This document shows positions 4,389 through 53,717 of a stretch of DNA of 64,000 nt, piece after piece. The notes below the pieces were generated by a model. That model made no database searches. It saw nothing but the letters and a program-made list of their open reading frames with translations, and was not told the origin of the DNA. Location: assembly GCA_963727235.1 (NCBI GenBank), contig CAVSFZ010000026.1:65286-129285 (forward strand), read 5' to 3'. The translations under genes and the position numbers were made by a program. Source of the stretch: an uncultured Actinomycetes bacterium. Its GTDB lineage: Bacteria > Actinomycetota > Thermoleophilia > Gaiellales > JAICJC01. Numbering within the stretch: position 1 is the stretch's first letter; each line of letters opens with the position of its first letter.

Positions 4389-7300
4389 TCAGGCGATGAC
4401 GGCGTCGCCCAGCAGAGCCCGTGCCTCGGCCATGAAGTCGCCGTCTGCCCGCACCCGGTAGTCGGAGCCGAAGCGGAGCACCTTGGCGCCCTCGGTGGTG
4501 TCGATGCGAAGCTCCACCGGCGCCTCGCCGGGGTACTCGCCGATCAGGCTCTTGAGCTCTTCCAGGATGGTCGCCGGCGCCTCGCGGGCATCGACCCGCA
4601 GCTTGACCACACCGGCGTCGGCGACTGCCTCGAACGGCGTTGCCTCCATCGCCATCAGCTTCACCTCGGTGTCGGACTTGCGCTCGACCCGGCCCTTGAT
4701 CAAAACGATGCTGTCGGGGCTGAGCACGTCCCGGGCGTTCTCCCAGGTCTTGGCGAACACGATCACCTCAATCGCGTCGGTGGCGTCGTCGAGCTGGACG
4801 AATGCCATCGTGTCGCCCTTCTTGGTGACCAGTTGCCGCACACCGGCGATGATCCCCCCCACGGTCACGACCTGCCCGTCGCGGAGATTGGGAAACTCCC
4901 GCAGCGGCGCGTCCACCTGGCGGGCGAGCTGCGACCGCAGCGGCGTCAGCGGATGGCTGGAGACGTACAGCCCCAGCACCTCCTTCTCGCGTCGCAGCAG
5001 ATCATCGCGATCCCACTCCAACGTCGACACCTGCGGGTGCACGCGGGTGACGGTGGCCGATCCGCCGGCGGCGTCGTCGCCCATCATGTCGAAGATCGAT
5101 CCCTGGCCGCGGCGAGCATCCTCCTGGATCTTCTGGCCGGCCGCGAGCGCCTGTTCCAACGCCTCGGCGTTGCCCCGCCGGGTTGCACCGGAGCAGTCGA
5201 ACGCCCCCGCTGCGATCAGGCTCTCCAGCATGCGCTTGTTCAGCACCGTCGCGTCGACCCGTTCGCAGAAGTCCCAGATCGACTCGAACGGGCGCTCGGA
5301 GCGGGCCTCGACGATCATCCGCACCGCTCCCTCGCCGACGTTTTTGACAGCCGTCAGACCGAACCGGATCTTGCCGTCCACCACTGCGAAGTCGGACTGG
5401 CTCTCGTTCACATCCGGCGGCAGCACCTCGATACCCATGTCGGCGCACTCACCGACGTAGAACGGCACCCGGTCCTTGGTCGACATCACCGAGGAGATCA
5501 GAGCAGCCATGTACTCGGCCGGATGGTTGGCGCGCAGGTACGCGGTCTGGTACGAGATCAGCGCATAGCAGGCCGCATGCGACTTGTTGAACGAGTAGTC
5601 GGCGCTGCGCTCGTTGTCCTCCCACAGCTGCTGGGCCAGCGCCGCGCCGACGCCGTTGGCGGCACAGCCTTTCAGGAACTTGTCCTTGAGCGAGGCCATC
5701 AGCGATGCGATCTTCTTGCCGACCGCCTTGCGGAGATCGTCCGCCTCGGCCGGTGTGAACCCTGCCAGTTCCCGGGCGATCAGCATCAGCTGCTCCTGAT
5801 AGATCGAGATCCCCGCCGACTCCGACAGGATCGGCTCAAGCCGCGGATCGGGGTAGGAGAACTGTTCCCGGCCGTTGAGGCGCGCTGCGTAGCGCGGGAT
5901 GTTCTGCATCGGGCCGGGCCGGTACAAGGCCACCAGCGCAATCAGATCCTCGAACCGGGTGGGCCTCACCTGGCGCAGCGCGTCGCGCATGCCGCTGGAT
6001 TCGAACTGGAACACCCCGGTGGCATCGCCGCGGGCCATCATCTCGTAGGTCTTGGTGTCGTCCAACGGCAGCGAGTGGACGTCCACGGTGACCCCGCTGG
6101 ACTCCTCGATCAGCTCCACGGCGCGGTCGATCACGTCCAGGTTGCGCAGGCCCAGGAAGTCCATCTTGAGCAGCCCCAGCGCCTCCACATCGTTCATCGA
6201 GAACTGGGTGACGACCTCGGAGTCGGTGCCCTTCTGCTGCAGCGGCAGGTACTCGGTCAGCGGCCGGTCGCCGATCACCACTGCCGCGGCATGAATCGAG
6301 TCGTTGCGCACGACCCCTTCCAGCGGCATGGCCATGTCCACCACCTTGCGGGTGGTCTCGTCGATGTCGTAGCTCTTGCGCAGCTCCGCGCCGGCCTTCA
6401 TGCACATGTCGAACGAGATCTTGGGGCCGTCGGGGACGAACTTGGCGATCCGGTCGACCACGCCGTAGGGCAGCCCCATCACCCGGCCGGCATCCTTGAT
6501 GGCTGCCTTGGGCTGCATCTTGCCGAAGGTGATGATCTGCGCGACGTTGCGGCGACCGTACTTCTCGGCCACGTAGTTGATCACGCGCTCGCGCCCGGCC
6601 ACGGCAAAATCGACGTCCACGTCGGGCATCGACTTGCGGCCGGGATTCAGGAACCGCTCGAACAGCAGCGAGTAGCGCATCGGATCGAGGTCGGTGATGC
6701 GCAGGCAGTACGCGACCAGGGATCCCGCGGCCGACCCACGGCCGGGTCCGACCGAGATGCCCTCGGCGCGGGCGAACCGGATGAAGTCCCACACGATCAG
6801 GAAGTAGTCGGGGAAGCCCATCTCCTCGATCGTCTTGAGCTCGAACTCCAGCCGCTGGCGCAGCTCAGGGGTCTCGCTGCCGTACCGCTCGCGCAGCCCG
6901 TCTTCAGCCAGCTTGCGCAGGTACGCGATGGCGGTCTCACCGCCGGGCAGATCGAAATGCGGCAGATGCGTTGCCTCGAAGTCGAGCGTGGCGGAGCAGC
7001 GATCGGCGATCTCGACCGTGGCCCGCAGCATCTCCTCGCCGAACCGCGGTGCGAACAGGTCGTACATCTCCTGCGGCGAGCGCAGGTAGAAGCCGTGGTT
7101 GGAGAACTTGAAGCGGTTCGGGTTGTCGAGCGTGTCTCCGGTCTGAATGCACAGCATGGCCTCGTGCGGGATTGCATCGGCGGCGGTCAGGTAGTGGACG
7201 TCGCCGGTACCCACCAGCGGCAGCCCGGCATCTCCCGCCATCGCCACCAGCTGCGGCGTGATCTGCGTCTGGATGTCGATACCGCCGTCCTGGATCTCCA

Positions 7301-7817
7301 CGTACACGTCGTCGCGGCCGAAGATCTGCACCAGCGTGTCCAGCTCCTGCCGCGCGCGGGCCTCGTCGCCGTCCACCAGCGCCTTGCTGACCCGGCCCGA
7401 GAGGCAACCCGACAGGGCGATGATGCCGTCGGCGTGCGCGGCCAGCTGCTCGAGGTCGACCCGCGGCTTGTACCAGTACCCGTCCAGGAACCCGGCCGAC
7501 ACCAGCCGCACCAGGTTGTGGTAGCCCTCGCGCGTCTCGGCCAGGAGCGTCAGGTGGCCGCGGCGTTCGCGCTGAGGCCGCGCGGCGTGGTCGTCGACCA
7601 CGTAGATCTCACAGCCCAGTATCGGCTTGATGCCGGCCTTGGCGCCGGCCTTGCAAAACTCCACCGAGCCCGCCATCGACCCGTGGTCGGTGAGCCCGAT
7701 GGCCGGCATCCCGAACTCTGCGGCGCGATTGACGAGAGGGCCGATCCGACACGCCCCATCGAGGATCGAGTACTCGCTGTGGACGTGGAGATGGGCGTAG
7801 CGCGGTTGGTTCGGCAC
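4389..7817 (-). CDS. dnaE: DNA polymerase III alpha subunit (replicative)
   Basis: 1142 aa. N-terminal PHP domain (YAHLHVHSEYSILDGA), the FLGLRNL motif in the fingers/palm region, and a C-terminal OB-fold region. GTG start at 7817. Confidence 0.97.
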   Translation of the reverse strand: MPNQPRYAHLHVHSEYSILDGACRIGPLVNRAAEFGMPAIGLTDHGSMAGSVEFCKAGAKAGIKPILGCEIYVVDDHAARPQRERRGHLTLLAETREGYHNLVRLVSAGFLDGYWYKPRVDLEQLAAHADGIIALSGCLSGRVSKALVDGDEARARQELDTLVQIFGRDDVYVEIQDGGIDIQTQITPQLVAMAGDAGLPLVGTGDVHYLTAADAIPHEAMLCIQTGDTLDNPNRFKFSNHGFYLRSPQEMYDLFAPRFGEEMLRATVEIADRCSATLDFEATHLPHFDLPGGETAIAYLRKLAEDGLRERYGSETPELRQRLEFELKTIEEMGFPDYFLIVWDFIRFARAEGISVGPGRGSAAGSLVAYCLRITDLDPMRYSLLFERFLNPGRKSMPDVDVDFAVAGRERVINYVAEKYGRRNVAQIITFGKMQPKAAIKDAGRVMGLPYGVVDRIAKFVPDGPKISFDMCMKAGAELRKSYDIDETTRKVVDMAMPLEGVVRNDSIHAAAVVIGDRPLTEYLPLQQKGTDSEVVTQFSMNDVEALGLLKMDFLGLRNLDVIDRAVELIEESSGVTVDVHSLPLDDTKTYEMMARGDATGVFQFESSGMRDALRQVRPTRFEDLIALVALYRPGPMQNIPRYAARLNGREQFSYPDPRLEPILSESAGISIYQEQLMLIARELAGFTPAEADDLRKAVGKKIASLMASLKDKFLKGCAANGVGAALAQQLWEDNERSADYSFNKSHAACYALISYQTAYLRANHPAEYMAALISSVMSTKDRVPFYVGECADMGIEVLPPDVNESQSDFAVVDGKIRFGLTAVKNVGEGAVRMIVEARSERPFESIWDFCERVDATVLNKRMLESLIAAGAFDCSGATRRGNAEALEQALAAGQKIQEDARRGQGSIFDMMGDDAAGGSATVTRVHPQVSTLEWDRDDLLRREKEVLGLYVSSHPLTPLRSQLARQVDAPLREFPNLRDGQVVTVGGIIAGVRQLVTKKGDTMAFVQLDDATDAIEVIVFAKTWENARDVLSPDSIVLIKGRVERKSDTEVKLMAMEATPFEAVADAGVVKLRVDAREAPATILEELKSLIGEYPGEAPVELRIDTTEGAKVLRFGSDYRVRADGDFMAEARALLGDAVIA

Positions 7818-7833: not shown

Positions 7834-7864
7834 CGAGCGGGGGCGACGGAGCCGCCCCCGCTCG
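7834..7864 (-). terminator. GC-rich hairpin downstream of the small ORF 7870-8112 (putative terminator, no U-tract)
   Basis: Perfect 11-bp stem, CGAGCGGGGGC (7834-7844) with GCCCCCGCTCG (7854-7864), and a 9-nt loop. It lies between a gene end and the dnaE start. Confidence 0.35.
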
Positions 7865-15132: not shown

Positions 15133-15749
15133 CCGGCGCCCACCTCGAATCGCGCGAAGCGCTTGATCTCGATGTTCTCGCCGAGCGTCCCGGCCAGCTG
15201 TGCGCGCAGCGTCTCGATCGTCTTGCCGTCGTCCTCCGGCCGGATCGACGGCTGATTCGCCAGCACGTAGTCGGTCAGCGACTTCGTCCACATGCCGGCG
15301 GCGATCTTCTCCAGCATCGCCTCGGGCTTGCCCTCCGCTGCGGCCTTGGCCCGGAAGATCTCCAGCTCAGCCGCCTTGAAGTCCTCGGGAATGTCGCTCT
15401 CCGACACGAACCGCAGGTCTCGGGCAGCGGCGATCTGCAGCGCGACCTTGCGGCAGAACCCGCGGAAGTCGTCCGTGCGCGCGACAAAGTCGGTTTCGCA
15501 TCCGACTTCGACCATCGATCCGATCCGGCCGCCCGCATGCACGTAGGTCTCGATCAGGCCCTCGCCGGTGCCGCGCCCTGAGCGCTTGTTGGCCGAGGCG
15601 ATGCCCTTCTCGCGCAGCAGCTTGACCGCCGCGTCCATGTCGCCGCCGGCTTCGGCCAGCGCCCGCTTGCAGTCCATCATGCCGGCTTGAGTGGTGTCAC
15701 GCAGCGCCTTGACCTCGGCAGCCGACGGCGTATAGGTGGCGTCGCTCAC
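15129..15749 (-). CDS. tsf: elongation factor Ts (short form)
   Basis: N-terminal UBA-like domain [37 protein letters not shown]. 206 aa. Confidence 0.95.
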
Positions 15750-16672
15750 TCGGCCTCCCCACTCTCGTTCGACGGTTCGGCGGGAGTCTCCGCAGCCGGC
15801 TCGGCCTCCGGCTCCGCAGCCGCAACGGCCTCAGGCTCAGCCTCCGGGGCAGCCGCGGCGTCTGCTTCCGCCGGGGCCTCCGCCCCGGCTTCAGGAACAG
15901 CCTCACCGGCTGCCTCGGCTTCGGCAGCGGCCTCGGCGGCAGCGGCTTCGGCAGCCGCCTGGGCTGCGGCGAAGTCGGCGGCCTTGATGCCGAGGTTGCG
16001 GCCGTCGGCGACCGCATCGGCGAGCACGCGCACAATCAGGTCGGACGAGCGGATGGCGTCGTCATTGCCGGGGATCACAAAGTCGGCGTCGTCGGGATCG
16101 CAGTTGGTGTCCACCAGACCGACCACCGGGATGTGGAGCCGGCGGGCCTCGCGCACGGCCAGCGCTTCCTTCTTCATGTCGATCACGACCACCGCATCGG
16201 GAAGCTTGCGCGTGTCGGCAACCCCACCGAGGTTGGTCTCGAGCTTCTCCAGATTGGACAGCGCGACCTGGCGCTCCTTGGCCGGCAGCAGCTCCAGCTG
16301 GCCGTCGCTCTTCTGGCGGCGGAGCTCGTGCAGAGCGGCGATCCGATCCTGGATCGTGCGGTAGTTCGTCAGCAGACCACCCAGCCAGCGGTGGTTGACG
16401 TAGGGCATGCCGACCCGGCCGGCGTGCGTCTCGACGGCGTCCTGGCACTGTTTCTTGGTGCCCACGAACAGCACGCTGCCGTTGCGCTCGCCAATGTTTC
16501 GCAGATACTGGGCGGCATCGTCGAGCAGATCGGAGGTCTGCTGCAGGTCGATGATGTAGATGCCGTTTCGCTCGCCGAAGATGAATCGGCGCATCTTGGG
16601 ATTCCATCGCCGCGTCTGATGGCCGAAATGCACTCCGGCCTCGAGCAGCTCACGCATGGTCGCTGAGGGCAA
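15746..16672 (-). CDS. rpsB: 30S ribosomal protein S2 with an Ala/Glu/Pro-rich C-terminal tail
   Basis: MRELLEAGVHFGHQTRRWNPKM signature. The TTG start at 16672 sits 7 nt after AGGAG. The C-terminal ~75 aa are low-complexity A/E/P. Confidence 0.97.
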   Translation of the reverse strand: MPSATMRELLEAGVHFGHQTRRWNPKMRRFIFGERNGIYIIDLQQTSDLLDDAAQYLRNIGERNGSVLFVGTKKQCQDAVETHAGRVGMPYVNHRWLGGLLTNYRTIQDRIAALHELRRQKSDGQLELLPAKERQVALSNLEKLETNLGGVADTRKLPDAVVVIDMKKEALAVREARRLHIPVVGLVDTNCDPDDADFVIPGNDDAIRSSDLIVRVLADAVADGRNLGIKAADFAAAQAAAEAAAAEAAAEAEAAGEAVPEAGAEAPAEADAAAAPEAEPEAVAAAEPEAEPAAETPAEPSNESGEAE

Positions 16673-16810
16673 GTCACTTCTCCTGATCGGTTGGATGAAC
16701 TCAGCCGGTGGCGACTGCCGGAATCCCGCCGCAGATACAGCGAGACACCGCCGGCGCCGTGTTCCACCGGGTCGGGGACGTACAGGTCGAGCGAAAGTTT
16801 AGACGACGTG

Positions 16811-16843
16811 GTGAATAAAAGGTGCCTGGCACCTTTTATTCAC
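16811..16843. repeat. palindromic element, copy 1 (33-nt perfect palindrome); probable bidirectional terminator
   Basis: GTGAATAAAAGGTGCC-T-GGCACCTTTTATTCAC. The rluD stop TGA (16840-16842) lies inside it. An A-tract and a T-tract flank the GC core. Confidence 0.85.
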
Positions 16844-17727
16844 GGCCTGGCTGCGTTGAGGGCGGTGGCCAGGTCGGGGGGCAGCGGGGAGTGGGCCAGC
16901 ACCGGCTCACCCGTCCACGGATGCTGAAACGAGAGCTCGGCGGCGTGCAGGAACTGGCGCTCCAGGCCCAGCTCGGGGCCGTGGCCGTAGACGGGATCGC
17001 CCACCACCGGATGGCCGATGGCCTGCAGGTGCACCCGGATCTGGTGGGTCCGCCCGGTCTCGAGTTCGACTCGGAGGAGTGACCGGTCGGGCAGCGCTTC
17101 GATCAGCTCAAACCGGGTCACGGCTTCCCGCGGCACGTCGGTGTCGGTCGAAACCCGTGCCGGCTGTCGCCGATCGCGGCCGATGGGCGCCTCGATCCGG
17201 CCTGTGCGCGACGGCGGGCGGCCACGCACCAGAGCCGTGTACACCCGGCTGATCTGGCGGCGGCGCAGCTGCGACTGGAGCTTTCCCAAGGTGATCTCGT
17301 CCCGGGCGACGACCAGCAGCCCCGAGGTGTCTCGATCGAGCCGGTGCACGATCCCCGCTCGATCCTCAGGGCCGCCTCCGCTGCGGCCCTGGAGCACCTC
17401 CACCAGGGTCGGCCCGGTCGCTCCCGGCGCAGCGTGCGTGAGCATCCCCGCCGGCTTGTCCACCACCATCAGTCGGTCATCCTCGAACACGACGGGGACA
17501 TCCGGCAGAGGCCCCGAGTCCAGTTCGGGCGCCGCCGTCTCGGTGATTCCGACCGACTCCCCAGCCGTGAGCCGGTAGGACTTCGACCTGACCCGGCCGT
17601 CGACCGTGACCGCCCCCGCCGCGACCAACCGCTCCGCCGCAGCGCGGGTACCGACTCCGGGCTGCGCCGCCACGAACCGATCCAGCCGGACACCCTCATG
17701 CTCGGCGGTGACCATGTGGTCGGTCAC
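16840..17727 (-). CDS. rluD: RluA-family 23S rRNA pseudouridine synthase (RluD-like)
   Basis: S4 domain followed by the HRLDRDTSGLLVVA catalytic motif. 295 aa. GTGA overlap with the lspA stop. Confidence 0.9.
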   Translation of the reverse strand: MTDHMVTAEHEGVRLDRFVAAQPGVGTRAAAERLVAAGAVTVDGRVRSKSYRLTAGESVGITETAAPELDSGPLPDVPVVFEDDRLMVVDKPAGMLTHAAPGATGPTLVEVLQGRSGGGPEDRAGIVHRLDRDTSGLLVVARDEITLGKLQSQLRRRQISRVYTALVRGRPPSRTGRIEAPIGRDRRQPARVSTDTDVPREAVTRFELIEALPDRSLLRVELETGRTHQIRVHLQAIGHPVVGDPVYGHGPELGLERQFLHAAELSFQHPWTGEPVLAHSPLPPDLATALNAARP

Positions 17728-36299: not shown

Positions 36300-36554
36300 A
36301 TGGCGAAGCGAACGTCTGTTCGACAGATCGGCCTCCCCCGCAAGGTCAGGGTGATCTGCGACCGCGACGGCATCCCCACCGCCGTCGCCGATCGCTCGGT
36401 GGAGCATGTGCGCGACGAGTGGCGGGTGGATGAGGGCTGGTGGACGGGGAACAGGACGCATCGCCGCTATTTCGACCTGGTGCTTGAAGACGGCCGCAAC
36501 GTGGTGGTCTTCTGGGATCACCGCGGCCACCAGTGGTTCGGCCAGCGGGTGTGA
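36300..36554 (+). CDS. 84-aa protein resembling a stand-alone ImuB C-terminal module
   Basis: The segment EWRVDEGWWTGNRTHRRYFDLVLEDGRNVVVFWDHRGHQWFGQRV matches the GWW-x(n)-R[DR]Y[FY]-x(n)-G-x(n)-W pattern I recall at the C-terminus of long ImuB proteins. The stop TGA lies inside palindrome copy 2. Confidence 0.5.
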   Translation: MAKRTSVRQIGLPRKVRVICDRDGIPTAVADRSVEHVRDEWRVDEGWWTGNRTHRRYFDLVLEDGRNVVVFWDHRGHQWFGQRV

Positions 36555-36586
36555 ATAATTGGTGCCTGGCACCAATTATTCACACC
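36548..36586. repeat. palindromic element, copy 2 (39-nt perfect palindrome)
   Basis: GGTGTGAATAATTGGTGCC-T-GGCACCAATTATTCACACC. Contains the stop codon of ORF 36300-36554. Confidence 0.85.
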
Positions 36587-36935
36587 TCGGATCAATCACG
36601 GCTGGCGCGGCGGGCGGAGCGGAGGCGTGGCAAAGCCACGTTGAGCACCGCACCACCGCGTGGGACGCCGCCAGAACCGGCGCGGACCAGCCTCAGAGTA
36701 GGTGTGGCCGGCGCCTCAGTGAGACGCCGGCCACAGGGAGGGCCTGACGAAGACGACCGGGGTTGTCACTCCTGCTGGGGAGGCGTGATCGTCATCGCCA
36801 GACAAGGTGAATACTACGGGGTATTTGCCAAGATTTCACGGGTAGAAGTGTTACAGATCAGTCACAAAACACTCGCTAACCCCATTGCAAACGAATAATG
36901 GACAGACCGAAATAGGGCAGTTTCCAGATCCTGGC

Positions 36936-36965
36936 TTGACCGATTACGGCCACGTCTGGCATACT
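36936..36965 (+). promoter_or_regulatory. candidate promoter: TTGACC-N18-CATACT (TGg extended -10)
   Basis: Lies in a stretch that is ~49% GC by hand count (36841-36960). It is followed by the GGAGGGGG ribosome-binding site and ATGATG at 37010. Confidence 0.5.
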
Positions 36966-37009
36966 CGATCGTCCGACGCGTGTGCTTGGCTATCGCGTCG
37001 GAGGGGGTA

Positions 37010-37327: not shown

Positions 37328-37351
37328 CTGATCGAACACATGTTCGGTCAG
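37328..37351. promoter_or_regulatory. LexA SOS box upstream of dnaE2
   Basis: CTGATCGAAC-ACAT-GTTCGGTCAG is a 10+4+10 palindrome with one mismatch. The core TCGAACACATGTTCGG is at 37332-37347 and ends 7 nt before the dnaE2 ATG. Confidence 0.85.
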
Positions 37352-37353
37352 TC

Positions 37354-40300
37354 ATGCAGTACCCAGAACTCCACGCCCACTCCTGCTACTCGTTTCTCGA
37401 CGGCGCCTCACAGCCTGAGGAGATGGCGATGCGCGCCGCCAAGCTGGGCTACTCGACGCTTGCGCTGACCGACCACGACAGCCTGTCGGGATCCCTGGAG
37501 TTCGCCAACGCCGCCCACGACGCCGGGCTGCGCCCCATCACCGGCTGCGAGCTGACCCTGGTCGACGGCTCCCACCTGACCCTGCTGGTCGAGAACGAGC
37601 ATGGCTACCGGAATCTGTGCCGGCTGATCACCGTCGCTCACCGCGACGATCGCCGAGCACCCAGTACCACGCTCGACCAGGTCGCCCGCCACGCCGAGGG
37701 GCTGCACTGCCTCTCCGGTTGTGCCCGCTTGGGCGCAGTGGCTCGGCCGATGGGCCGGGGGCAGGTGCGTGAGGCGGAGCGCATCGCCCGGAAGCTGCGA
37801 GGAATCTTCGGCCGTGACCGCTTCGCCATCGAGATCAACCGGCCCTACTGGCGCGGTGACGCTCGCCGCAACCGGCTTTTGACCGAGCTGGCCGGCGCTC
37901 TGCGAGTGCGCCTGGCCGGCACCGGCGACGTGCACGCCCACTCTCCCCGCCGGGCCTTTCTCCAAGACGCGCTGGTCGCGATCCGGTGCAACTCCACGCT
38001 GGACGCGAGCGAAGCAGAGCGACGGGGAAACCACGAGTCGGTGCTGCGCACGCCGGACGACGCTGCCCACCTGTTTTCAGCCGAGGCCACCCGCGGCGCG
38101 ATCGAGGTGGCCGATCGCTGTCGATTCGACCTGACCCGCGATCTGGGGTATCGCTATCCCGACTTCTCGGACACCGGAGAACCGGCGCAGGCCGTATTGG
38201 AGCAGCTGTGCCGAGCCGAGCTCGACCGCCGCTACGCCGGCACCGGCATGGTCGCCGAAGCACGTCAGCGACTCGAGCAGGAGCTGGGCTTGATTGCCCA
38301 TCACCAGCTGGCAGGGTTCTTCCTGCTCCACCGAGACATCCTCGAGATGGCGCGGGCGGTGGCGGTGCGCGTGCGCGGTCGCAGCGCCGGGCGCAGACTC
38401 CTCCCCCCCGGCCGCGGTCGCGGCTCCAGCGTGGGATCGATTGTGTGCTATCTGATCGGGCTGTCTCATGTCGATCCGGTGGAGACGCGCCTGTTCCTGG
38501 GCCGGTTCCTCTCCAAGGATCTGGCCAGCGTCCCCGACATCGACCTCGACTTCCCCCGAGACGTGCGCGAGGGGTTGATGCTGGACGTGATCGAGCGATA
38601 CGGATCCGACCACGCCGCGTTGGTGGCGGCGTTCCCCACCTACAAGACCCGGGGCGCGATCCGCGATCTCGGCAAGGCGCTGGCACTCCCGCAGGGCGAG
38701 ATCGAGCGGATGGCCCGGCTGGCCGACTCATGGGGCCGGATCGAGCCCGAGCAGGTGGAGGAGCTGCGCGGCCGTCTGGACGCGCCCCGCTGGAAGGCGT
38801 TCTCGTTTCTGATGGAGGAGATCAGCGGCCTGCCCCGCCACCTCTCCCAGCACTCCGGCGGAATGGTGATCTCGACCACCCCGCTGGTGGAGCTGGTGCC
38901 GGTGATCCCGGCAGCCATGCAGGGGCGCCAGATCTGCCAGTGGGACAAGGACTCGTGCGCGGATGCCGGATTTCTCAAGATCGACCTGCTCGGTCTGGGG
39001 ATGCTCTCTGCAGTGGAGGAGTGTGTGGATCTGATCGCCCAGTCACGCGGCGCGCCGATCGATCTCAGCCGAGTCGGATTCGATGATGCCGACGTTTTTG
39101 CCGAGATCCGCGCGGCCGACACGGTGGGCGTGTTCCAGATCGAGAGCCGCGCCCAGATGCAGTCGCTGGTACAGACCAAACCGGAGAATCTCGCCGACCT
39201 GACGGTGCAGGTGGCGCTGGTGCGACCCGGCCCGATCGTGGGCGATGCGGTCAACCCGTACATCAAGCACCGGCGCGCCCGGCGGGATGACCCATTCTTC
39301 GAGCCCCCCTATGACCACCGGCTGCTGGAGCCGGTGCTGAACGACACGCTGGGCGTGGTGGTGTTTCAGGATCAGGTGCTCGAGGTCGCGATCGCACTGG
39401 CCGGATTCACCACCGGCGAGGCCGAGAGCCTGCGCCGGGCGATGAGCCGCAAGCGCAGCCGTGAGGCACTCGAGAGCCACTGGATCCGATTCCGCGATGG
39501 ATCCGCCGAGAACGGGGTGTCCGAAGAGACCGCCCGCACGGTGTTCGACAAAGTGGTCGCCTTCTCGGAATTCGGCTTCCCCAAGAGCCACGCCGCCGCC
39601 TTCGCAATCCTCGCCTACCAGTCGGCATGGCTCCACCGCGCCTACCCCGCGGAGTTTCTCTGCTCACTCCTGAACGCACAGCCGATGGGCTTCTACCCTC
39701 CGGCAACGCTCTTGCGCGACGGTGAGCGGCGCCAGGTCGAAACCCGCCCGCCGGACGTCAACCTCAGCCTGGCCGCCTGCTCGGTGGAGGATCACGGCGC
39801 GGCCATCCGGATCGGGCTGGGCTACGTCAAAGGTGTCGGTACCCGCTCCGAGCTGCTGGTCTCCGAGCGCGACCGAAACGGGCCCTTCACCGATCTGGGC
39901 GACCTGGTGCGGCGCTCACCGCTTGCAATCGACCTGCTGGAGTCGCTGGTCAAAGCCGGCGCCTGCGATCGGTTCGGCGACCGCCGGCAGCTGCTGTGGG
40001 AGCTACGGCTGCACCGCGCCCCCGCGGGCCCCGAGCACGCTCGCCAGCTGGCACTGGCACTCGACTCCGCCCCCACCCCGAAGCTTCGGCCGATGAGTGA
40101 TTGGGAGCGGATGGTGGCAGACCACGAGACCATGAGTCTCACCACCGGCCCCCATCCGATGGCGCTGCTGCGACCCAACATCGCGGAGGAGATCCGCTCT
40201 GCTGCATCACTTCGCGACGGTACCGGCGGCCATGTGACGATCGCAGGGGTGATGGTTGCCCGGCAGCGGCCCTCGACGGCCAAGGGCATCGTGTTCCTCT

Positions 40301-40617
40301 TGGTGGAGGACGAGTCCGGCATGGTCAACGTGGTGGTGCCGGCAAAGATCTACGAGCGTGATCGGATCGCGATCCGATCAGAGCCGCTGGTGCAGATATG
40401 GGGTCGGCTGGAGCGTCGCAACGACACCCTCAACGTGATCGCCGAACGGGTCGCGGCGCTGTCACATGTGGCCAGGCCGGAGATCCGCGCCCAGGCGGAG
40501 CGGGCCGCCGCCCGAGCGGCAGGTACCGGGGCCGGGCAGGGCGGCCGGGTGGCCGACATGCGGGCGCTGAAGGCTGCGGTGCCACGCGGTAACAGCTGGG
40601 GCCAGGGACGGCGTTAG
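37354..40617 (+). CDS. dnaE2: error-prone DNA polymerase DnaE2 (ImuC)
   Basis: 1087 aa. PHP N-terminus MQYPELHAHSCYSFLDGAS. Second C-family alpha subunit in the window, SOS-boxed, with no tau/beta-binding C-terminal extension like that of dnaE. Confidence 0.93.
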   Translation: MQYPELHAHSCYSFLDGASQPEEMAMRAAKLGYSTLALTDHDSLSGSLEFANAAHDAGLRPITGCELTLVDGSHLTLLVENEHGYRNLCRLITVAHRDDRRAPSTTLDQVARHAEGLHCLSGCARLGAVARPMGRGQVREAERIARKLRGIFGRDRFAIEINRPYWRGDARRNRLLTELAGALRVRLAGTGDVHAHSPRRAFLQDALVAIRCNSTLDASEAERRGNHESVLRTPDDAAHLFSAEATRGAIEVADRCRFDLTRDLGYRYPDFSDTGEPAQAVLEQLCRAELDRRYAGTGMVAEARQRLEQELGLIAHHQLAGFFLLHRDILEMARAVAVRVRGRSAGRRLLPPGRGRGSSVGSIVCYLIGLSHVDPVETRLFLGRFLSKDLASVPDIDLDFPRDVREGLMLDVIERYGSDHAALVAAFPTYKTRGAIRDLGKALALPQGEIERMARLADSWGRIEPEQVEELRGRLDAPRWKAFSFLMEEISGLPRHLSQHSGGMVISTTPLVELVPVIPAAMQGRQICQWDKDSCADAGFLKIDLLGLGMLSAVEECVDLIAQSRGAPIDLSRVGFDDADVFAEIRAADTVGVFQIESRAQMQSLVQTKPENLADLTVQVALVRPGPIVGDAVNPYIKHRRARRDDPFFEPPYDHRLLEPVLNDTLGVVVFQDQVLEVAIALAGFTTGEAESLRRAMSRKRSREALESHWIRFRDGSAENGVSEETARTVFDKVVAFSEFGFPKSHAAAFAILAYQSAWLHRAYPAEFLCSLLNAQPMGFYPPATLLRDGERRQVETRPPDVNLSLAACSVEDHGAAIRIGLGYVKGVGTRSELLVSERDRNGPFTDLGDLVRRSPLAIDLLESLVKAGACDRFGDRRQLLWELRLHRAPAGPEHARQLALALDSAPTPKLRPMSDWERMVADHETMSLTTGPHPMALLRPNIAEEIRSAASLRDGTGGHVTIAGVMVARQRPSTAKGIVFLLVEDESGMVNVVVPAKIYERDRIAIRSEPLVQIWGRLERRNDTLNVIAERVAALSHVARPEIRAQAERAAARAAGTGAGQGGRVADMRALKAAVPRGNSWGQGRR

Positions 40618-51211: not shown

Positions 51212-52488
51212 CAGACGATCTCCAGCACTGTCTCGGTGGGCTGTGGCTCATGATCGCCGATTGCAAAGCAGGCCGCCGCTGAGGCGATGTCCGGCTCCGT
51301 CCGGGCGTGGATGGTTGCCAGCGGCTGCCCGGGCTCCACCCGTGTGCCGGCCTTGGCGTGCACCACCACCCCCACCGCATGGTCGATATCTGCGCCGACC
51401 TCGGTTCGGCCGGCCCCGAGTCGCATGGCGACATCTGCGATCCCACGGGCGCTGCAGCGCGTCACCCAGCCCCGCTGTGATGCGGGCACATCCACGACGA
51501 TCGGCGCGGTCGGCAGGCGTGCGTCCGGGTCTCCCCCCTGAGCGCCCACCCACCGTCGGAACGCGGCCAGACCGGCCCCGGACTCGAGCGCCCGCACCGC
51601 GGCGCCGCGATCACCGGTGAGCAGGCCGGTGGCCGTGATGCAGACCTCCACCAGATCAGCCGGCCCTCCACCTGACAGCGTGGCCACCGCCTCGGCCACC
51701 TCCAGGGAGTTCCCCACGGCGGCTCCCAGCGGCTCGTCCATTGCCGTCAGCATGCAGGTGGTGTCGACCCCGGCCGCCTCTCCGAGCCGGCGCATGGTGG
51801 CGGCAAGCTCGTGCGCATCGGCGCGCTCCTGCATGAATGCGCCCTCGCCGACCTTCACGTCCAGCACCAGACGGCGGGCCCCCGCAGCGAGCTTCTTGGA
51901 CATGATGCTGGTGGCGATCAGGGGAATCGACGGCACCGTTGCCGTGGCGTCTCTGAGAGCGTACAGCCGCCTGTCGGCGGGCACCAGATGGAGGCTCTGG
52001 CCGGCCACCGCGATACCGATGTCGCACACCTGGGATACCAGCTCGGCGGCGCTCAGCTGGGTGCGAAAGCCGGGAATCGACTCGAGCTTGTCAAGCGTCC
52101 CGCCGGTGTGCCCGAGACCGCGTCCGGAGAGCTTTGCGATCGGCACGCCGCAGGCGGCGACCAGCGGCGCCACCACCAGGGTGGCCTTGTCGCCCACGCC
52201 TCCGGTGCTGTGCTTGTCCACGACCGTGCGCCCCACCGGGGACAGGTCGAGCCGCTCGCCGGAGTCGACCATCGCCTCCAAGAGCGCCGCCGTCTCGGCG
52301 TCGCTGAGGCCGCGCCACAGCACCGCCATCAGGAACGCCGCCAACTGGTAGTCCGGAGTCTCGGGTGCAATCAGGGTGCGGATCTCGGCCGCGGTCAGCT
52401 CACGGCCGTCGCGCTTGCGCTCCAGCGCGTGCACCGCGATCGGATCGGCCTCAGACAACCGATCGTCCGGGAAGCCGATCGTCCCCAC
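51211..52488 (-). CDS. deoA: thymidine / pyrimidine-nucleoside phosphorylase
   Basis: KRDGRELTAAEI...QLAAFLMAV...VDKHSTGGVGDK motifs. The start (GTG at 52488 or TTG at 52458) is uncertain. Confidence 0.9.
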   Translation of the reverse strand: MGTIGFPDDRLSEADPIAVHALERKRDGRELTAAEIRTLIAPETPDYQLAAFLMAVLWRGLSDAETAALLEAMVDSGERLDLSPVGRTVVDKHSTGGVGDKATLVVAPLVAACGVPIAKLSGRGLGHTGGTLDKLESIPGFRTQLSAAELVSQVCDIGIAVAGQSLHLVPADRRLYALRDATATVPSIPLIATSIMSKKLAAGARRLVLDVKVGEGAFMQERADAHELAATMRRLGEAAGVDTTCMLTAMDEPLGAAVGNSLEVAEAVATLSGGGPADLVEVCITATGLLTGDRGAAVRALESGAGLAAFRRWVGAQGGDPDARLPTAPIVVDVPASQRGWVTRCSARGIADVAMRLGAGRTEVGADIDHAVGVVVHAKAGTRVEPGQPLATIHARTEPDIASAAACFAIGDHEPQPTETVLEIV

Positions 52489-53614
52489 GCCCGGTCAGCA
52501 CCCGCGCGACCGTCGCGCCCACGTCGGCGAACGTGTCGCCGTCGTGGCGGTGGCCCAGCATCGGCGCGCCCGGGACGTGCGCCAGCAGCAGGCCGTGCTC
52601 GCGCGAGTGGTCGGTCGAGGGCGTGGTCGGATCGCAGCCGTGATCCGAGGTCAGGATCAGCAGGTCGCCGTGGTGGAGCGCCGCCATCAGATCCGGCAGG
52701 GCGGCGTCGATGTCCTCCAGCGCATCGGCGAACCCTCGGGGATCGTTTCGGTGGCCCCAGAGCATGTCGGTCTCGACCAGGTTGGTGAACACGAAGCTGC
52801 CGTCGGGCACCTCTCGCAGCAGCCGTGTGGTCACCGCCATGCCCTGACCGTTGGAGCTGGTGGGCGTCGACTGATCGATGGCGGTGCCGGCGAAGATGTC
52901 GGCGATCTTGCCCACCCCGTGCACGGTCGTACCGGAGTCGCGCAGGTGATCCAGCCAGTTCGGGCTGGGCGGTGCCAGCGAGAAGTCGTGCCGGCCCGAG
53001 GTGCGTACATACTCGCCCGGCGCACCCGCGAACGGACGCGCTATCACCCGGGCGACAGCGAGGTCGCCGACCAGCAGATCGCGGGCGATCCGGCAGGCCG
53101 TGTACAGCTCTTCGACCGGCACTGTCTGTTCGTGGGCGGCGATCTGGAACACGGAGTCGGCCGACGTGTACACGATCCAGTCGCCCGTTTGCTGGTGCTG
53201 CTCTCCCAGCCGCGCGATGATCTCGGTTCCGGAGGCGGCCTCGTTTCCGATCACTCCCCGCCCGGTGGCGTCGGAAAAGCGGGCGAGCAGGTCGGCCGGG
53301 AAGCCGTCGGGGAAGGTGGGGAACGGCTGCTCGGTGAGGATTCCCATCATCTCCCAGTGGCCGGTGGTGGTATCCATCCCGCGGCTGCGCTCGATCAGGC
53401 GGCCGTACACCGCCGGGGCATCCCGGCGTGGAGGACAGCCCCGCACCGGCAGGATGTTGCCGAGGCCAAGCGCTGTCAGCGTGGGCAGCTCGAGGCCGCC
53501 GACCGCATCGGCGACATGCTGCAGGGTGCTTGAACCGGCGGTGCCGAACTCCGCCGCGTCGGGCAGGTCGCCGGCACCCACCGCATCCAACACCAGTACA
53601 CATGCTCGGGCCAT
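52451..53614 (-). CDS. deoB: phosphopentomutase
   Basis: LVLDAVGAG..., the LWGHRND motif, and the LILTSDHGCDPT motif. 387 aa. Confidence 0.93.
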   Translation of the reverse strand: MARACVLVLDAVGAGDLPDAAEFGTAGSSTLQHVADAVGGLELPTLTALGLGNILPVRGCPPRRDAPAVYGRLIERSRGMDTTTGHWEMMGILTEQPFPTFPDGFPADLLARFSDATGRGVIGNEAASGTEIIARLGEQHQQTGDWIVYTSADSVFQIAAHEQTVPVEELYTACRIARDLLVGDLAVARVIARPFAGAPGEYVRTSGRHDFSLAPPSPNWLDHLRDSGTTVHGVGKIADIFAGTAIDQSTPTSSNGQGMAVTTRLLREVPDGSFVFTNLVETDMLWGHRNDPRGFADALEDIDAALPDLMAALHHGDLLILTSDHGCDPTTPSTDHSREHGLLLAHVPGAPMLGHRHDGDTFADVGATVARVLTGRGDDRLPGRSVV

Positions 53615-53636
53615 ACGGTGAGCCTAGATGAACAAC

Positions 53637-53669
53637 GGTGAATAGCGGTGCCTGGCACCGTTATTCACC
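53637..53669. repeat. palindromic element, copy 3 (31-nt core, one G/A arm mismatch)
   Basis: G-GTGAATAGCGGTGCC-T-GGCACCGTTATTCAC-C. Each arm is one nt shorter than in the other copies. Confidence 0.8.
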
Positions 53670-53680
53670 CCGACCGCCCG

Positions 53681-53717
53681 GCGTGAATAAATGGTGCCTG
53701 GCACCATTTATTCACGC
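53681..53717. repeat. palindromic element, copy 4 (37-nt perfect palindrome)
   Basis: GCGTGAATAAATGGTGCC-T-GGCACCATTTATTCACGC. The TAA stop of the GNAT gene (53708-53710) lies inside it. Its centre is 46 bp from the centre of copy 3. Confidence 0.85.

Follow-up and report, generated by a model that had tools for sequence, protein, structure and literature searches.

A lineage-restricted family of palindromic hairpin repeats at gene ends in uncultured Gaiellales-like bacteria, probably serving as bidirectional terminators

A 64,000-nucleotide stretch of core chromosome from an uncultured Actinomycetes bacterium of the order Gaiellales, here called the window, holds four copies of a short palindrome with the consensus (G)TGAATA-N1-4-GGTGCC-W-GGCACC-N1-4-TATTCA(C). 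These four palindromes belong to a real, apparently undescribed and lineage-restricted family of hairpin repeats of 29-33 bp (about 31), of which we find more than 100 further copies beyond the window, in uncultured metagenome-assembled genomes (MAGs) that resemble Gaiellales and Thermoleophilia. [quoted passage not shown] Termination itself is something we infer from anatomy and position.

The four palindromes had been noticed from the letters of the window alone, in an original prediction that described them as perfect palindromes which supply stop codons at gene ends. When the pattern GTGAATA-N1-4-GGTGCC-N-GGCACC-N1-4-TATTCAC is searched across the window and across 100 dinucleotide-preserving shuffles of it, the window gives exactly four matches (16811-16843, 36551-36583, 53638-53668 and 53683-53715), all at the places originally given, and not one of the 100 shuffles gives any, so the chance expectation is none. 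The heptamer GTGAATA occurs nine times on the two strands of the window against 0.8 expected, with eight of the nine inside the four copies, and the exact core GGTGCCTGGCACC is confined to these copies within the window. In an independent palindrome scan, too, no palindrome of the 64 kb was longer than these four, whose 15-19 bp arms flank a single central nucleotide.

All four share the blocks GTGAATA, GGTGCC-T-GGCACC and TATTCAC and differ in the spacers between them. The left and right spacers are AAA and TTT in copy 1 (16811-16843), a perfect palindrome with 16-bp arms; ATT and AAT in copy 2 (36551-36583), where the palindrome reaches 36548-36586 and the arms 19 bp; GC and GT in copy 3 (53638-53668); and AAT and ATT in copy 4 (53683-53715), where the palindrome reaches 53681-53717 and the arms 18 bp. 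The description as perfect palindromes with compensated spacers is thus right for copies 1, 2 and 4 but not for copy 3, where GC stands opposite GT and leaves one G:T pair on the plus strand, which is one A:C mismatch on the minus strand.

To see how far the family extends we scanned 185,579 species genomes, in blocks of 8 kb, with the looser pattern AATA-N1-4-GGTGCC-N-GGCACC-N1-4-TATT. At least 97 genome blocks matched, and about 95 family copies are among the matches listed. Of the 97 blocks listed, about 85 belong either to uncultured 'Actinomycetes' soil MAGs (MFD series) or to MAGs that carry the label Gaiellales, Thermoleophilia or Actinomycetota. Nearly all looser-pattern matches in the blocks listed have the TG...CA flanks, and the few matches listed from Bacillota, Desulfovibrio, Bryobacterales and other groups that lack TGAATA are look-alikes. 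The search of relatives that the original prediction had proposed yields more than 100 further copies in many genomes. The nearest named homologues of the RluD and GNAT proteins of the window are from Gaiellales, and an exact-protein look-up for the window RluD found no identical protein on record.

Ends and core go together throughout: 95 of 100 TGAATA...TATTCA pairs enclose the exact core and most of the other five hold recognisable variants of it, while among 206 arms counted only nine were scored as alone, all of them beside a degenerate partner arm. Viral contigs, plasmids and phages gave no family copy, so the element is not phage- or plasmid-borne, and there was none in about 260 kb from 80 metagenomic rpsB loci of more distant relatives, which serve as empty-site controls. 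The family is carried by independent assemblies (ENA, JGI, TPA, Logan) and is hence not an assembly artefact. Consistent with the earlier view that this is not a described family, Rfam returned only noise-level microRNA hairpin matches at both its gathering threshold and in permissive mode, and a literature search with the core sequence returned only unrelated eukaryotic primers.

The two arms change together. In an alignment of 103 distinct copies (A2), with pairs counted over the full stem and compared with 500 shuffles, 89% of the cells are paired. Cells changed on both sides number 124, against 65 ± 6 in the shuffles, and the covariation is 0.161 against 0.069; none of the 500 shuffles reaches the observed value of either measure, and the covariation signal is lost when the partner is slid by one to three columns. 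Most double changes fall in three spacer pairs, and the core pair 16/24 covaries as well, from U-A to G-C in two loci (L015 and L181) and to A-U in a third (L189). Spacers vary between 1 and 4 nt in length from copy to copy with the opposite arm matching, and in many copies the palindrome runs on into copy-specific flanks. That both the sequence and the length of the spacers vary with compensation, and that arms are never single, bears out the proposal of a hairpin rather than of two protein half-sites. Both RNA strands of the window copies fold into stems of 15-19 bp with a 3-nt loop, at -23 to -32 kcal/mol and z-scores of -5.7 to -7.8. Specifically, copy 1 gives -26.4 kcal/mol on the plus strand and -23.5 on the minus strand (z about -5.8), and copy 2 gives -31.9 and -30.8 kcal/mol.

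We also asked where the copies lie relative to genes. Genes in the high-GC loci were called from GC at the codon positions, and junctions were sorted according to how the genes on either side are oriented. The loci were chosen for holding an element, so the absolute frequencies are biased, but the contrast between convergent and divergent junctions is not. An element is present at 42 convergent junctions and absent from 77, present at 34 co-directional junctions and absent from 342, and present at 5 divergent junctions and absent from 106. The 81 junctions with an element thus show a strong excess at convergent sites and a depletion at divergent ones. Together with the good folding of both strands, this placement agrees with the bidirectional-terminator layout that had been predicted. 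The predicted supply of stop codons is seen as well: on 48 of the 128 3'-facing sides (38%) the stop codon lies inside the arm, as TGA in 32 cases and as the TAA or TAG of TGAATAA/G in 16. A further 20 sides have their stop no more than 10 nt from the element, which brings those inside or within 10 nt to 68 of 128, and in 9 of 43 convergent pairs both genes end within the same palindrome.

Within the window, which has a GC content of ~68%, most genes are on the minus strand; it is core chromosome, and the genes beside the copies were identified with Pfam. Three of the four copies do contain a stop codon, as originally stated, but in two of the three (copies 1 and 4) the gene that ends is on the minus strand and its stop lies in the right arm; only copy 2 terminates a plus-strand open reading frame (ORF). 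The further claim that every copy sits at a gene 3' end does not hold, since copy 3 ends no gene. Copy 1 parts lspA-rluD from the promoter and leader of rpsB (15746-16672, minus strand). The TGA stop (16840-16842, minus strand) of rluD, a pseudouridine synthase gene (16840-17727, minus strand), is in its right arm, and 9 nt downstream of the copy on the minus strand is TAAACT (16796-16801), the likely -10 hexamer of rpsB, a role that we presume from the TAnnnT consensus. Copy 2 follows two small plus-strand ORFs. The second of these (36300-36554, 84 aa) has its TGA stop at 36552-36554 in the left arm; its third-position GC of 0.82-0.87 supports coding, its product has no Pfam match, and downstream of the copy comes a second DnaE-type polymerase gene (37354-40617). 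The other two copies, 4 and 3, stand in tandem and part xerC-like and GNAT acetyltransferase genes from a metalloenzyme gene (52451-53614, minus strand). The TAA stop of the GNAT gene (53708 to about 54514) is at 53708-53710 on the minus strand, in the right arm of copy 4. Copy 3, the second hairpin of the pair, lies 14 nt downstream of copy 4 (gap 53669-53682) and 23 nt upstream of the ATG (53614) of the metalloenzyme gene, which is the next gene on the minus strand. A likely -10 hexamer, TAGGCT (53621-53626, minus strand), stands 6 nt before that start codon and suggests a leaderless mRNA for this phosphopentomutase-like (deoB-like) gene.

The synteny of rluD and rpsB is widely conserved among relatives, which allows the site of copy 1 to be compared with empty sites. 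In relatives without an element rluD ends three to four codons later, at the TAG inside the conserved rpsB -10 box (TAGAAT or TAGGAT), whose counterpart in the window is TAAACT. The window equals the relatives' empty site plus 32 nt, and removing these 32 nt returns the rluD frame to the TAA in TAAACT. By this comparison copy 1 is an insertion-like gain that would have shortened rluD by three to four codons and given it a new stop. In a 94%-identical relative (L178) the element occupies the same place, with identical flanks and a right spacer AAT instead of TTT, which looks like the replacement of one arm by that of another copy; a 1-nt difference upstream shifts its rluD frame, and the gene ends at the TAA of the same arm. 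At 74% RluD identity (L179 and L180) there is no copy in 21 kb. At 66% identity (L181/L182) there is none between rluD and rpsB and there are three elsewhere, two of the three with the compensated core GGGGCC-A-GGCCCC; this MAG is also the source of several of the genome-scan matches.

Other hairpins are found at such positions. Two loci (L143 and L172) have an ordinary hairpin followed by TTTTT between rluD and rpsB. Upstream of dnaE (4389-7817, minus strand) a family member is present in L181 and an unrelated GC hairpin in the window (7834-7864) and in L179 (19560-19590). The latter, CGAGCGGGGGCG ... CGCCCCCGCTCG, lies directly upstream of dnaE, and its sequence is kept between the window and L179. 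Genomes free of the family hold other hairpins at the same sites, and a hairpin of some kind therefore recurs there.

The GNAT-metalloenzyme site adds a comparison over a range of divergence. Each of the five related genomes examined (GNAT identity 77-92%) has an element where the window has copy 4, which makes six genomes with the window, and its spacers differ between genomes and are always compensated: AAT/ATT in the window and L188, AGTAATT/AATT in L185, AC/GT in L186 and L187, and AAC/GTT with the core GGAGCC-A-GGCTCC in L189. The second copy, which corresponds to window copy 3, is found in L185 and L186 and is missing from L188 and L189; in L187 it is decaying, having lost its centre and changed TATTCA to TACTCA. 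The search for presence/absence differences at orthologous sites, which the original prediction had suggested, thus finds them both here and as the gain at rluD-rpsB. In L186 and L187 (10788-10863) the GNAT frame passes the first palindrome in its sole stop-free frame and ends at the TGA of the second, a read-through that adds 10-12 residues. The right flank TCTCCC in L186 is now complementary to the coding left flank GGGAGA, and in L185 (10842-10900) the 10-nt right-arm unit CCGTTATTCA is triplicated in tandem. Over 20 kb of shared synteny at this site no other copy has been gained. The TAGGCT hexamer is kept in L185-L189, at a distance of 8-31 nt from the element. Further orthologous pairs that were aligned among the scan loci (L043, L059 and L072) keep the position of the element and show switched spacers and partial nested duplications, and overlap coordinates suggest a shared site for two unaligned pairs (L029/L049 and L060/L083).

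Conserved sequence, patchy distribution, insertion-like gain and arm replacements together show, as far as comparison of sequences can, that the copies form one family by descent or conversion rather than a set of independent inventions. This agrees with the original claim of a dispersed family as opposed to independently evolved terminators, given more than 100 copies in many genomes and gain, loss and conversion-like change at orthologous sites. The change of both arms at once, the growth of stems into the flanks and the small number of spacer types would fit a combination of template-switch mutation and gene conversion.

We propose the following account of how the element may work. Transcribed from either strand, each copy forms a 15-19 bp hairpin with the GC core GGUGC-CWG-GCACC, an A-rich run before it and a U-rich run after it; following GGCACC the copies read UUUUAUUC, AUUUAUUC, AAUUAUUC or GUUAUUC, with 4-6 U in 8. 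The copies would serve mainly as bidirectional intrinsic terminators or 3'-end hairpins that close transcription units, and would shield downstream promoters, such as those of rpsB and of the leaderless deoB-like gene, from read-through. Each arm opens with TGA and TAA/TAG in two reading frames, so that a copy could sit on, or insert into, the last codons of a gene and translation would still end. Copies are gained and lost, and have both arms changed together, probably by template-switch mutation and by gene conversion between copies, which may keep them palindromic and uniform. Bidirectional termination or insulation is the best-supported function on account of the anatomy, the convergent excess and divergent depletion, the proximity to promoters and the replacement hairpins.

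Several observations weigh against this account. In the minimum-energy fold the imperfect U-rich run pairs along its whole length with the A-rich run, what follows the complete stem is rich in GC, and copy 1 went uncalled in a simple terminator scan. The window has five convergent gene pairs and all of them lack a copy, so this genome does not use the family as its general terminator. Some copies are found between co-directional genes with little space between them, and one is inside an ORF extension, where the GNAT gene of L186 and L187 reads through it. Nor is there a clear strand preference. The central base, T or A, shows a weak link (odds ratio about 2) to the strand that runs opposite to the majority of genes, and none to the direction of the adjacent gene. 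With copies oriented T-centred, 13 have G:T-type imperfections and 3 have A:C-type ones, in copies that are not independent, and the excess is possibly a subfamily effect; these imperfections too are at most weakly strand-biased and unrelated to adjacent-gene direction. In co-directional contexts a hand count places the wobble-friendly, G:U-tolerant strand on the sense side in three cases and on the antisense side in five, and we dropped the idea of a strand-specific element. Czyz and co-workers are said to have found in 2014 that mycobacterial hairpins without a free U-tract do not terminate in vitro. By Term-seq, predicted terminators of every type in mycobacteria, including TRITs, overlap minimally with mapped 3' ends (2-4% each).

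Nor does termination alone account for the conservation of TGAATA and GGNGCC-W-GGCNCC from species to species. One explanation, which we regard as unlikely, is that these constant blocks mark recognition of the folded hairpin by a dedicated, lineage-specific factor. This could be a sequence-specific termination or RNA-processing protein, in which case the copies would be factor-assisted terminators of the kind once proposed for TRIT. Another candidate is a hairpin-specific nuclease or transposase, domesticated and copying the element into the regions of stop codons, and the family would then be a self-propagating terminator-plus-stop-codon cassette with its own maintenance system.

A different explanation of the uniformity is that the palindrome is a selfish, REP- or MITE-like mobile element (MITE, miniature inverted-repeat transposable element), spread by a hairpin-recognising enzyme encoded elsewhere, such as a RAYT or IS200-type HUH transposase, and kept at gene ends as a harmless insertion whose built-in stops are tolerable, any effect on transcription being incidental. 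The same sequence at unrelated loci and across species would follow from this, as would the patchiness among relatives (none in 21 kb of L179 and L180, three in L181, none in the 80 rpsB loci), the 32-nt insertion-like gain that shifts the rluD frame, the nested or partly duplicated copies in L043 and L185 and the conversion-like arm replacement in L178; REPs moreover show the same positional bias and also donate stop codons. A candidate enzyme was looked for in 1.17 Mb made up of the window and all loci, and E. coli RayT gave a best tblastn E-value of 0.6 and no phmmer match, a negative of limited sensitivity and sampling. No gene family recurs beside the copies, there is neither a GTAG or CGTC tag nor a target-site duplication, and the flanks tend to be inverted complements rather than direct repeats. 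The GNAT site, occupied across genomes at 77-92% protein identity while 20 kb of synteny acquired no further copy, suggests that copies are stably retained at particular sites and do not actively hop, and other kinds of hairpin occupy the same positions in family-free genomes. We consider mobility of this kind somewhat unlikely; of the original suggestion of a REP- or MITE-like dispersed element the dispersed family stands, while no transposase turned up in the 1.17 Mb and no target-site duplication was seen. As to a MITE in particular, we rejected it because the flanks show no direct repeats (they tend to extend the palindrome) and no insertion sequence with these ends was seen in the loci.

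The hairpin might instead act after transcription, near the stop codon, by blocking 3'-to-5' exonucleases and stabilising the upstream mRNA, and perhaps by impeding the ribosome at termination and adjusting how well the upstream gene is translated. There are REP precedents: this effect on the ribosome and on translation has been shown for E. coli REPs less than 16 nt from a stop codon. The 68 of 128 3'-facing sides with a stop inside or close to the element, the very stable stems on both strands and the copies between co-directional genes that may be co-transcribed would all suit such a role. However, the convergent excess and the placement just upstream of promoters fit insulation or termination better, and the order of A-run, GC stem and U-run is that of a terminator. 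As the explanation of the family we hold it to be quite unlikely, noting that such a role and termination are not mutually exclusive and that the present evidence does not separate them. Highly improbable, finally, is that a protein dimer, such as a global repressor or nucleoid protein, binds the element as duplex DNA, or that it is a gyrase-type site, and that it would act in this way on neighbouring promoters or chromosome structure. Such a site would account for two conserved blocks in dyad symmetry and for the position of copies 1 and 3, 9-12 nt upstream of likely -10 hexamers. Yet the distance between blocks shifts by 1-3 bp per arm with the intervening bases compensating, the distance from element to conserved -10 box ranges over 8-31 nt among orthologues, and roughly every second copy stands between convergent genes, away from any promoter. 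An operator of this kind we reject: a dimer that reads the duplex needs no compensating spacers and tolerates no change in their length, while here the spacers compensate and vary in length from 1 to 4 nt per arm, and only 5 of 81 junctions are divergent. We also considered and rejected sigma-54 promoters (TGGCAC-N5-TTGC), LexA, Zur and NrdR boxes, dif/Xer sites and uptake sequences, all of which mismatch in sequence, copy number or position.

Inverted pairs of uptake sequences, the DNA uptake sequence (DUS) of Neisseria and the uptake signal sequence (USS) of Pasteurellaceae, double as terminators and resemble the present family in having a conserved sequence in inverted pairs that forms terminator-like hairpins after genes. 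Such motifs also occur in large numbers singly and inside genes, while single arms are essentially never seen here, and we rejected this identity. Canonical bidirectional intrinsic terminators likewise combine an A-run, a GC stem-loop and a U-run on both strands and lie after stops and between convergent genes. The present copies differ in their imperfect U-run, in keeping 25 of about 31 positions constant from locus to locus and between species, whereas ordinary terminators share no sequence between loci, and in that the stop codon is inside the stem, whereas it is usually upstream of a terminator. The closest parallels are TRIT and REP. TRIT comprises 147 conserved palindromic, mostly bidirectional motifs in M. 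tuberculosis; they start within the coding sequence, some 8 nt ahead of the last base of the stop codon, and the family belongs to one genus, with a sequence conservation that suggested an unknown factor (Gardner et al. 2011, PMC3152330). Like TRIT, the present element is a palindrome conserved in both sequence and structure, with many copies that are mostly bidirectional in layout, bound to gene ends and limited to one actinobacterial lineage, and the stop overlap is similar: measured to the end of the stop codon, the element starts 4 nt ahead for TGA and 8 nt ahead for TAA/TAG, against ~8 nt for TRIT. It is carried by Gaiellales- and Thermoleophilia-like MAGs, with no Mycobacterium among the matches listed, and the two sequences were compared by description only; the family resembles TRIT in behaviour and is not a member of it.

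REPs bear GTAG or CGTC tags, are linked to RAYT, supply TAG stops and lie between convergent and unidirectional ORFs (PMC3733652). The present family shares with them a palindrome of 20-40 bp in many copies, convergent and co-directional sites, the donation of stops, occasional close pairs, proposed roles in termination and mRNA stability and a proposed evolution by gene conversion. Tandem pairs 14-60 nt apart are formed by copies 3 and 4 of the window and occur in L037, L039, L062, L080 and L186. In contrast to REPs, the copies have symmetric ends, GTGAATA ... TATTCAC, without a GTAG or CGTC tag, and are near-perfect with a 1-nt centre where REPs are imperfect with bulges. In contrast to the inverted doublets of REPIN and BIME they are mostly singletons, and a palindrome has no definable orientation. 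The novelty is thus one of lineage and sequence, not of principle: the family is TRIT- and REP-like in its working and a member of neither.

Some features beside the copies deserve description in their own right. The rpsB leader (~16675-16795, minus strand) holds a structure, GACCCGGYGG ... CCRCCGG around an inner hairpin, that is kept in more than 20 related metagenomic loci and is probably an S2 autoregulatory leader; Rfam gave no report for it. Beside copy 2, at 36600-36700, lies a second repeat of ~100-125 nt, which is 84-91% identical to stretches of three loci from two other MAGs (L004 3165-3300, L041 3890-4014 and L095 1671-1799) and always stands on the same side of a palindrome copy, 20-90 nt away. 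The repeat folds as one long hairpin (-95.9 kcal/mol, z -8.0, in L004) with a compensated G/C swap in L095, has no Rfam match, and in the window is without its outer 5' part. Possible identities are a small RNA gene, a doublet of the REPIN type or an element with a habit of inserting beside palindromes. Directly after it comes a near-perfect palindrome outside the TGAATA family, TGTGGCCGGCGCCTCA-G-TGAGACGCCGGCCACA (36703-36735), in which 15 of 16 arm positions pair around a 1-nt centre; the other loci hold different hairpins there. The ~230 nt from 36750 to 36980, before the second DnaE-type gene, are non-coding, have an unusually low GC content of about 50% and contain the only solitary GTGAATA of the window (36807). 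Just upstream of the same gene (37354-40617) is TCGAACACATGTTCGG (37332-37347), which we take to be a close match to the actinobacterial LexA (SOS) box TCGAAC-N4-GTTCGA, and the gene is probably an SOS-induced DnaE2/ImuC.

Related arrangements were seen in other loci. In L006 a ~330-bp tandem duplication (4411-4771) spans the element and its conserved flanks (...TATTCACGGCCGCAGGCCGT...); at 4516-4545 the usual TGAATA/TATTCA ends enclose a different inner stem, TGAATATGCAGTGCTTGCACGGCGTATTCA, and the duplicated block is missing from the orthologous site in L042. The core also appears in other frames. A small family in Bryobacterales has the form AAAATAATT-GGTGCC-W-GGCACC-AATTATTTT (L046 3474-3500 and 3669-3695, L073 5543-5569), and one in Desulfovibrio the form AACTTAATAAAY-GGTGCC-T-GGCACC-RTTTATTAAGTT (L020 795-821, L086 2146-2172). 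This sharing of the core might reflect a recurrently favoured hairpin top or a chance likeness.

Terminators in high-GC actinobacteria are poorly understood. We know of no conserved-sequence terminator motif outside Mycobacterium, where the function of TRIT is disputed. A second, unrelated family with TRIT-like habits in a deep-branching, uncultured soil lineage suggests that this is a recurring and possibly factor-dependent solution. In practical terms the motif marks the ends of genes and operons, which can aid the annotation of MAGs down to exact stop codons and C-termini, and it is a lineage marker in soil metagenomes. It also shows cleanly, in a natural setting, how palindromes can alter their two arms simultaneously, by template switching or by conversion.

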